This document shows, piece by piece, positions 97-2,760 of a stretch of 64,000 nucleotides of DNA (within the stretch, counting starts at the first letter, position 1; each line of letters begins with the position of its first letter). The translations under genes and the position numbers were made by a program. The stretch lies in the NCBI GenBank assembly GCA_010093705.1, contig MU006101.1:543673-607672 (forward strand), in the 5' to 3' direction. This stretch comes from Patellaria atrata CBS 101060 (Eukaryota). A model generated the notes under the pieces. That model saw only the letters and a list, made by a program, of their open reading frames with translations. It searched no databases and was not told the origin of the DNA.

Positions 97-2760
97 TGCA
101 CACTCGCTCTATTAATCTCTATCTCTATCCTTATCTCTTTTCCCCTACGCTTTTCTATCGAGACAAAGTCCTCCACCAAACAATGTTCCGAACTCTCGAT
201 ACAGAAACAACCCGACACAATTGGTCCCAAACATGTGTATAGGGGGAGGTCCCAGTGACACGTAGAATCCGTTTGTGCTGAGGGCTGATGTAAGGTGGTA
301 ATGGCATGTAAAGTGAAGAATGTGGATTCAGGTGTCCGATCCAGAGGAGACTGGAGGAGGACAGCATATATACCCGACTGAGTGCTTAGTCAGGTGCGAT
401 AGCTGAAAATCATTCTACCCTTGTACTGATTGATATTGAAAGGCTAAGTTCGTCGGAGAGGAGGGAAAAGCTTATATTCCCTTAAATCGGTTTGTTTAAA
501 AGGGACAAGTGATCAAAGTATCAGGTATGCAGGATTCGTTCACTAGGAGCAAGACCTGCGGTCAAGAGACGTGATATGGTGCGCCAATAACACCAACCGC
601 TTTATCCGTCACGGGGGCAAGAGTGAGCATATATCTAACAGTGCTAGAGATTCTTGTACAATCAAACAACGATCAATCACCGAGAAATTGGTTCAGAAGC
701 CAAATAAATTCTCCATGTGTAATGCTTAATAATAATAATAGGGCAACCATCGATTGTTTCCTCCCTCAATGCTATCGTTGACGAATCCTATTCGGTGGTG
801 TGCCCCAAAAGTCAATTTATATTCCCTCCCCTGGTACAACCACTGAATTTCCGTTTTCCTCCACTCCTCAAAAAAGAAAAGTATGCTGCTTTCCACCACT
901 ATCCTCCTATACCACTCTTTATCATCACAACCGAACTCTGACCTCTATCACTAGTGTCGAGACCCAGCCCTTCTCCCCATTAGCCCATATTTTACCCGTA
1001 CGCCTTTTTTTTGACCTTGAATTCTTTCCACAGTTACCAAGTCCTAGCCGAGACCAAGAGAGCAGATCGACTCTGGTAAACTGAGATTACCCACGGCGAA
1101 CACATCCTGATCGTATTGGAGAAGGTAGTGTCTATCGAGAGCGAGCCCAGTGGATTACTCGGGCCGAATTCAAACCGGTCCACCTCGTAGACTGATTCTG
1201 ATGCTGAGAAAGTAGGTTGAAGGAGAGGAGAAGGGGTTATATACCTCTAGAGATGGTCTATGCGAAGGGATGAGTGATGTAAGATGTCAGATGTACACAG
1301 TACATAGCTGTCTGCAAGCAAGTGGGCTCATGCGGTGGAAGTGCGTGATATGGTGCAGCAATACAACTAAGTTCATCTCAATCATAAGATAAGGATGTGG
1401 GAGTATATATCTGATACTCCCAAGATCATTTCATTGTTCTATAACTGAACAAAGCATCTGTGATCAAAGAGTGACTGAAAGTCTCTTGAATGCTATACAT
1501 GTAATTTGATTCCTCTGCCGGGGGACGACGAAGATTCATGCGACATGTTTTTGGAGAATCGGTCCCTACCCAACCCCCTAGAATCCCAACACTTCCACTT
1601 CTCTGAAAGGAAAGAGAAATATTCTGTTCCACCATCATCATATTCCCATCCTGCGTTCCATCATCACCATCACCCCCGCCTCCCTTTCCCGGGGTTAAAA
1701 TCAATCTCTGGCCCTATTTCCTAGCCGTACCCCTTATATCCTATACCCTCCAGACTCAATCAATCGTCAATCCATACGAGAAGACGACGAAACCTCATTA
1801 CAGGGAAAGCACTTTATCTCTACACCCATTCCCCTACTAGGTCGACGTTGATATGGAAAAAGTAAATCCAAAGGAAATCAGGACCGACAGTATTATATAC
1901 CCCCCGTACCAATCTATGAAAGATCCAAGGACCAAAACGTCAGCTGTACGGAGCATCACACATCCAGGGGCCGTCATACCGTGAAGACGCATGATATACC
2001 GAATCACCCTAACAAGCCGTTCTTCCCCCAGAGTTACAAATGACAGCCCGCTTACAATCAACCAAAGAACGCAGCCAAGATTTACAACACCGTAGACTAC
2101 AAAGGAAGATAATCATTGAATTTGGTATCGTTGTTCTGATTGTCCCGTTCGCGGTTGCTGGTACGGATACCACTCCAGGTTTCCTCTTCAGTATTCCTCT
2201 CTTCTGCTGGGCCTCTAGCACTTCTCCACCTCCCTTATTACATAATTCCCAACAGATATACTCATTGCCATCGCTAACCTTACAATACCCCAATCATAAC
2301 TTCCCGAGACTACCCTCCATCATGGCCATCATTACCCATATCCCCATCCAATGCACACCCCGGCACCAACTACATCTCCCATCCCCAATTTTCTCCCATC
2401 TAGCGCCCAAGTCTAACAATGTATGGAAGAGCCCATTGGCGGAAGTGTCCAAACGACCAATGACATTCCGAGGTATCTGGAAGCATATCCCAGACAATAG
2501 GTAGAAGTTTCCCCGCATGGAACTCCAATATTTCATTTCAACTTCATCTTCGAGGCCGACTAATTGCTGTATTGAGAAACGAAAGTCGAAAGGAAGAGGG
2601 GGAAGGGATCTATATACACGCAGAGAATGTCCACGAAGAGGAGGAATGAGTGCTCAATGTCAGCTGGGTACGACCGGTGAATGACCACGTATGATTACGC
2701 ACGAGATAGGTGTAGAACTAGGCTGATGGTCTGATGCGATACAGTTGGACTGTAACCCTG
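97..2760 (-). repeat. Array of four diverged ~650-770 bp tandem units, each with a promoter-like module facing left
   Basis: Shared order on +: GA-rich tract, then (T)TATA(T)AC at 472/1237/1893/2611, RTCAG at 520/1286/1939/2659, and a GATA motif at ~570/1344/1990/2702. Units 2 and 4 also share blocks further left (TATCGTTG; CTGGTAC..ACCACT..TTTCCTC). Confidence 0.7.

Follow-up and report, generated by a model that had tools for sequence, protein, structure and literature searches.

Four tandem minus-strand units with related promoters and unrelated bodies in Patellaria atrata CBS 101060: candidate non-coding Pol II units

We describe a tandem array of four units on the minus strand of Patellaria atrata CBS 101060, at the left end of the window (the whole 64-kb stretch of DNA analysed, C13:543673-607672 of the 28.7-Mb assembly). 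The array is real, and the bodies of its units share no measurable DNA, fold or peptide (Table 1). We favour, at a probability of about 0.55, the reading that these would be non-coding Pol II units, duplicated long ago, of which the promoter and not the RNA has been kept.

Layout, setting and promoter homology

As the preliminary description had reported, minus-strand TATA words are present at 479, 1244, 1900 and 2617, each with a pyrimidine tract behind it (C+T fraction 0.70-0.85), and successive boxes are 765, 656 and 717 bp apart. The RTCAG word (CTGAY on the minus strand), said to lie 46-49 bp from the TATA word, was measured at 48, 49, 46 and 48 bp in units 1 to 4. Other elements are less uniform than first described. 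The GTATATA core is found in units 2-4, the box of unit 1 being GAATATA, and the GATA motif, placed at 92-107 bp from the TATA word, falls within that range in units 1, 3 and 4 (101, 100 and 94 bp) and at 110 bp in unit 2. The box pattern, widened to admit the GAATATA of unit 1, picks out 4 boxes in 97-2900, whereas the rest of the window (61 kb) holds 2 and the 20 kb on its left another 2. The starts predicted in Table 1 assume the distance seen in the snRNA genes of this genome, where transcription begins 45-56 bp from the TATA box.

Table 1. Features of the array and its surroundings, and box clusters elsewhere in the genome. Positions without a contig prefix are those of the window.
Feature	Position	Strand	Description
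A-rich 8-base simple repeat	1..96	.	edge of assembly gap; short tail of unit 1 ends here
Unit 1	97..760	-	upstream region, degenerate TATA, body split by solo LTR, short tail
Target-site duplication, left copy	284..288	.	5 bp, identical to right copy
Solo LTR, copia-like retroelement	289..401	-	113 bp, ends TA...CA, own TATA-like word, 372-395 hairpin
Target-site duplication, right copy	402..406	.	5 bp, identical to left copy
Unit 1 core promoter	431..479	-	GAATATA word 479-473, pyrimidine tract, predicted start near 437-431
Unit 1 upstream words	520..576	-	CTGAT 524-520; GATA-containing word 573-576
Unit 2	790..1500	-	upstream region; CTGAC 1290-1286, TATA 1244-1237, predicted start 1205-1199; body reaching about 1040, then G-rich tail as far as about 820
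Imperfect inverted repeat	790..848	.	distal end of unit 2's tail; folding z -4.5 (+) and -2.35 (-)
Unit 3	1500..2100	-	CTGAC 1943-1939, TATA 1900-1893, predicted start 1854-1849, G-rich tail
154-codon ORF	2040..2504	+	public gene model lying antisense to the tail of unit 4; one-member cluster
Unit 4	2100..2830	-	CTGAC 2663-2659, TATA 2617-2610, predicted start 2573-2565, G-rich tail
Aldehyde dehydrogenase gene (SSADH-like)	2945..4621	-	array lies downstream of it, same strand
TATA/pyrimidine box cluster	C4:1297700-1306400		mostly ORF-poor
TATA/pyrimidine box cluster	C4:1426700-1435300		mostly ORF-poor
TATA/pyrimidine box cluster	C4:1529300-1534400		mostly ORF-poor
TATA/pyrimidine box cluster	C11:403000-407400		mostly ORF-poor
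TATA/pyrimidine box cluster	C17:555700-558500		mostly ORF-poor
TATA/pyrimidine box cluster	C17:606800-613800		mostly ORF-poor
TATA/pyrimidine box cluster	C6:1173000-1174600		mostly ORF-poor

To its left the window borders on about 1.44 kb of N, followed by unrelated DNA, and more units could sit inside this gap. A search with a promoter model for a fifth unit came up empty in the window and in the 20 kb on its left (the strongest further match had E 0.51), and own-genome DNA searches with units 2-4 each matched only the units themselves. No RIP signature was found, the RIP indices of the array being those of the whole window. The relatives of the neighbouring aldehyde dehydrogenase mostly carry the SSADH label, and two of its three species-named matches are from what we take to be Dothideomycetes. 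The synteny proposed as a check in the preliminary description was not recovered: neither module nor array follows SSADH in any of 13 fungal-like loci (7 with at least 5.5 kb of flank). These were the loci, out of 80, with no less than 70% identity, the other 67 being set aside as probably bacterial. A PAP2-family (PAP2_3) gene lies upstream of SSADH at 5408-6184 (-). Upstream of unit 2, a 9-bp inverted repeat surrounds a second TATA-like word (1398-1422; z about -2.1, both strands), and a Homol-D-like word occurring once, at -233 of the same unit, was dismissed as chance.

The promoters were compared pair by pair against 19 real TATA/pyrimidine control promoters, all of which were exceeded by pairs 1-2 (score 84), 2-4 (63) and 1-3 (46), and not by pairs 1-4, 2-3 and 3-4. 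In leave-one-out profiles the omitted module was top-ranked in all four trials among 403 kb drawn from this genome with TATA promoters over-represented (23.6, 32.9, 11.4 and 14.5 bits for units 1-4, versus 13.3, 12.1, 10.1 and 9.4 for the best others), a margin that is clear for units 1 and 2, modest for unit 4 and marginal for unit 3. Profiles built from upstream sequence only recover units 1 and 2 and miss units 3 and 4, and part of the likeness of the latter two may thus be generic core-promoter sequence. The similarity of pair 1-2 is concentrated upstream (z 10.8) and in the core (z 6.7), with z 0.3 in the body. CTGAY at a fixed distance, TATA word and tract occur together in all four units, which none of 200 shuffles matched, although this count is generous, the motif having been spotted before the test. 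Taken together, the comparisons point to promoter homology that is strong for units 1 and 2 and weaker for units 3 and 4.

Behind the bodies, the tail of unit 2 resembles that of unit 3 (score 49, reached by 0 of 900 genomic windows), and for unit 4 the likeness of the tail is borderline, its score being reached by 4 to 13 of 900 windows. An alignment of the distal parts of units 2 and 4 (~750-860 with ~2105-2190), claimed earlier, is not significant, its score being reached by 213 of 1000 shuffles.

The bodies and the solo LTR in unit 1

When two contig sets of one sample (probably DNA) were mapped to the window, depth rose about sevenfold in the first bin and loose ends lay at 288-402, by which we recognised a solo LTR that the preliminary description had overlooked, counting its hairpin as RNA-gene structure. 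The sequence has 22 other genomic matches at 82-96% identity. Among 22 copies with the core word, the 5-bp flanks match in 11 (two of which share surroundings), a common downstream word stands behind 7, and a frame beside one copy matches Pfam Pol_BBD (E 4e-5, under the Pfam cut-off). The usual LTR ends of Ty1/copia retrotransposons are TG...CA; here the copies begin TA and end CA or TA. The element resembles Ty1/copia solo LTRs in several respects: it is short and dispersed, its ends are sharp, target duplications of 5 bp flank it, and some copies have a common primer-site-like word and gag/pol-like frames behind them. It differs in its length of only 113 bp and its TA...CA ends. The family as a whole (window 289-401, loci L005-L026) is very short, about 110-119 bp, and copia-like, with ends TA...CA or TA...TA. 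At loci L014 and L016, two copies in opposite orientation lie about 2 kb apart, with internal sequence behind each. The insertion site would be about 30-40 nt after the predicted start of unit 1. The 372-395 hairpin and the 7-codon ORF of unit 1 are thus products of the copia-like insertion, and the LTR was left out of every comparison involving the body of unit 1.

The bodies show no DNA similarity at +55..+235 from the box in any of the six pairs (z -1.9 to 1.5). Sense bodies fold no better than shuffles (z 0.10, 0.00, 1.25 and 0.62 for units 1-4), and the lower folding energies of the minus strand thus reflect G/U content rather than selected structure. The hairpins drawn in each unit by the preliminary description can indeed be drawn, but among 11 hairpin stretches folded only 365-400 on the minus strand, in the LTR, has a folding excess (z -2.9, 1 of 200 shuffles), the remaining ten giving z -1.9 to +0.7. 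When 92 windows of 90 nt were folded, 761-850 came out best (plus strand, z -4.5); it holds one inverted repeat, and the places tried in units 3 and 4 as its counterparts gave z +1.4 and -0.1. The earlier view of the bodies as structured RNAs is therefore not borne out, there being neither folding excess nor common fold, and the strongest named hairpin belonging to the LTR.

Comparison with known RNA genes and promoters

Rfam gave no match at gathering score within the 64-kb window. Such searches can be blind here, since gathering scores missed both U1 genes of this genome (L069:2059-2213 (+) and L084:2055-2210 (+), with 52 and 58 bits against a gathering score of 69.5), which two of our control promoters turned out to serve. 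In E-value mode, which finds the two U1 genes at 1e-12 and 5e-11, the best match in 90-2950 had E 1.7 and none was an snRNA, in agreement with the first impression that no known snRNA, RNase P or SRP signature is recognisable.

Two U2 genes and the U4, U5 and U3 genes were added for comparison. The U1, U2 and U4 genes have a TATA box and pyrimidine tract with the start 45-56 bp after the box, an AP-1-like heptamer 34-52 bp before it, and a common 3' stem-loop in which 7 of 19 pairs are changed on both sides (loci L084, L069, L168, L169, L171); the U5 match has no such stem-loop or AP-1-like word in the stretch examined. This stem-loop may, by analogy, be a Pac1-type processing element, as Pac1 cuts a 3' stem-loop of this kind in fission yeast (PMC8421224). 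One U2 gene has an apparent short GT-AG intron near its 5' end (L169:1443-1517), and the U3 gene an intron-like stretch directly after its first bases (L172:1431-1500).

Like the five genes for U1 (two), U2 (two) and U4, the units have a TATA box and pyrimidine tract, the Pol II promoter type of Sm-class snRNA genes, and their TGA-type word stands comparably far from the box. They differ from them in carrying only a TGAY half-site and a G-rich tail, with no full AP-1-like heptamer or snRNA 3' box, no Sm site (0 of 4 units) and no 3' stem-loop: the best match of the model built from the five genes in 97-2900 had 8.6 bits (E 0.68). Hairpins at the body ends, which looked good by eye as snRNA-type 3' stem-loops, failed this model test.

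The snoRNA-like or pri-milRNA identity proposed earlier fares no better. No minus-strand body contains CTGA (D box), and C-like words occur only in the GAT-rich tails. As to an H/ACA layout, checked by eye, ACA positions differ between units and the folds are no better than shuffles. The long stem-loop of a pri-milRNA is absent, the longest unbroken helix of the bodies being 9-12 bp (shuffle means 10-11). As to Pol III marks, a lone T6 run lies in unit 2 (+369), far from the body, and none of the four units has a B box. By these features, the units would resemble ordinary tight Pol II promoters, and not snRNA, C/D snoRNA or milRNA genes.

Among published layouts, that of ordinary genes is close. 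The Aspergillus nidulans start-site map places the TATA box 30-45 bp before the start (PMC4046813), and its TATA-type promoters share with the units the TATA word, the pyrimidine-rich stretch to the start and a CA at the likely start, whereas the units are four in tandem with no gene behind. Neurospora milRNA loci are likewise intergenic and short with TATA-like elements, but milR-1 to -4 are Pol III transcripts whose stem-loop has a T run directly behind (PMC3547838), against no long stem and a single T6 run here. Neurospora disiRNA loci need convergent transcription (PMC3764098); the array resembles them in lying in a gene-rich region as a candidate for non-coding transcription by Pol II, and differs in having clear promoters in one direction only.

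Alternative explanations and the proposed reading

The bodies might be tiny fast-evolving peptide genes, paralogous or already pseudogenes, whose promoter and 3' UTR remain recognisable while ORFs of 20-50 codons have diverged, which we regard as possible if unlikely. The main hint is that units 1, 3 and 4 have an ATG at +66, +71 and +70, counted from the TATA word; moreover, unit 1 carries a 46-codon ORF once the LTR is removed, units 1, 2 and 4 each have an open frame of 45-52 codons that stops where the purine-rich tail begins, and 4 of 13 single TATA/pyrimidine boxes elsewhere lead, by eye, to signal-peptide-like starts. Unit 2, however, has no ATG before +139, and the first ATG of unit 4 gives 4 codons. 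The four minus-strand first-ATG peptides are as the preliminary description gave them, and its finding of no conserved ORF stands: summed best frame-by-frame protein scores were 161 versus 153 +/- 9 (79 of 400 shuffles; one pair 9 of 400), and open-frame lengths were ordinary (77 to 914 of 1000), spliced ORFs being screened by motif only. Peptide likenesses noticed by eye were ruled out by the shuffle test. Nine of ten candidate ORFs are absent from the protein collection, the one present being the plus-strand 2040-2501 frame, and no homologue turned up for unit 4's ORF of 80 codons. We consider it quite unlikely that the units are neutral relics, left over from a tandem duplication that has since decayed. 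Clear relatedness would then be limited to units 1 and 2, and everything else would be generic promoter sequence of low complexity with no present function. Units 3 and 4 are indeed unrecovered from upstream sequence alone, the insertion and damaged box persist in unit 1, and nothing is conserved next to SSADH in the other fungi examined; yet decay is expected to be even, and TATA word, tract and fixed-distance CTGAY are kept in all four units with unalignable bodies, in a pattern that recurs at other loci of the genome.

The preliminary description had read the array as duplicated Pol II-type minus-strand units with conserved promoters and diversified bodies, which the analysis supports, and had proposed for the bodies a family of structured RNAs (pri-milRNA, snoRNA-like or an unknown class). 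A structured small RNA family, be it snRNA-like, snoRNA-like or pri-milRNA, we now judge very unlikely. The snRNA-like layout and TGA-type word, a drawable hairpin that ends each body before the purine-rich stretch, and the U1 genes missed by Rfam speak for it, but the search that does find U1, the absent Sm site, full AP-1-like site and 3' box, and the lack of folding excess largely refute it for known classes. There is also a slight chance, very small in our estimate, that the tails are plus-strand promoters, the bodies being transcribed both ways as at Neurospora disiRNA loci, or that a spliced plus-strand RNA runs through the array. The tails are strongly C-rich on that strand (skew 0.4-0.8), intron-like GT...branch...AG stretches start just right of RTCAG in all four units, and a plus-strand gene model is present. 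Against this, no plus-strand TATA/pyrimidine box passes in 97-2900, the SSADH 3' flank is skewed with the same sign as the tails, and the splice pattern is permissive, with 18 plus-strand matches whose donors are out of register and no null behind the count. The gene model itself (154 aa) had no Pfam match, a pTM of 0.18 and no usable feature match; its relatives besides itself are two repeat proteins and one further match at E 9e-4, and it is probably a prediction artefact.

Boxes of this type also occur in groups elsewhere. The TATA/pyrimidine pattern was found at 200 places genome-wide versus 142 for the reversed control, with several clustered among the 100 of 200 matches listed, and CTGAC-gap-GTATATA was barely enriched (31 versus 22). 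Among 20 places chosen as single, at least two boxes stood within 4 kb at 6 and just one at 13, and at the last no box reached the threshold. At six cluster loci, three of them chosen via the CTGAC pattern, 32 of 35 boxes were followed by no ATG-started frame of at least 100 codons in the next 860 bases, a scan that could miss spliced genes, and Rfam gave no match at gathering score on 8 cluster loci. The cluster at L065 repeats the pattern of the array, with promoter scores up to 74 and body scores of 17-39. TGAY lies at -55..-38 in 13 of 39 cluster boxes chosen without the motif (5.5 expected; 1 of 200 single-base shuffles, a lenient null), and in 2 of 13 single boxes (1.7 expected). No homology of these clusters to the array was detected beyond the core promoter, and on 25 pattern-matching loci the promoter model matched mostly the TATA/tract parts (best E 0.002). 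A stretch of ~185 bp, about 88% identical, is common to L065 (about 1510-1700) and C4 (about 1531100-1531300), and is probably another small insertion.

In the reading that we prefer, that of duplicated non-coding Pol II units, a TATA-driven unit of about 700 bp would have been tandemly duplicated long ago. In each copy a TGAY word precedes the TATA box by 42-45 bp, a pyrimidine tract follows, and the start would lie some 40-52 bp beyond the box. A body of about 150-200 nt would follow, and then, in units 2-4, a G-rich tail resembling a fungal 3' UTR. The predicted product is a minus-strand RNA of about 350-450 nt, non-coding and unstructured, starting near 437, 1202, 1852 and 2570. A TGAC-binding activator may switch the four units together, and selection would preserve the promoter and, more loosely, the tail, leaving the body to drift; the copia-like solo LTR would have entered unit 1 later. 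With the promoter kept and the body drifting, the likely point of such units would be regulated transcription itself.

The box density, the leave-one-out ranks, the z-scores of pair 1-2, the absence of peptide similarity and of RIP, the pattern at L065 and the TGAY enrichment in clusters count for this reading, as does the match of layout to this genome's own U1, U2 and U4 genes and to the TATA-type promoters of the A. nidulans map (PMC4046813). The degenerate box and tolerated insertion of unit 1, the absence of the array next to SSADH in the 13 loci, and the three of six promoter pairs that do not exceed real promoter controls count against it, and four sequences of one genome are too few to show selection. 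Considered by its sequence, the array appears as a pattern built from ordinary parts, whose arrangement is not described in the literature searched (most subscription papers and supplements lying outside its scope), where we found no description of such arrays.

To our knowledge, fungi have no Piwi proteins. One might nevertheless speculate, as a long shot, that the array represents a hitherto undescribed kind of autonomous Pol II mini-gene, occurring in clusters in Dothideomycete-like fungi, in which a TGAC-TATA geometry near the snRNA type drives many short, deliberately diverse RNAs (a supply of small guide RNAs or of micropeptides, probably limited to certain stages), much as at nematode 21U-RNA loci. 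C. elegans 21U-RNA loci (PMC3597512) are similar by analogy only, as clustered mini-units with a fixed-distance upstream motif and unrelated bodies; the units here are about 700 bp long with a TATA box, and are known from sequence alone. If the units are transcribed and co-regulated, ORF-poor gaps would hold a recurring unannotated class of genes whose conserved part is the promoter. Such arrays would then offer a simple test case of whether selection keeps transcription or the RNA product, and may be a nursery for new small genes.
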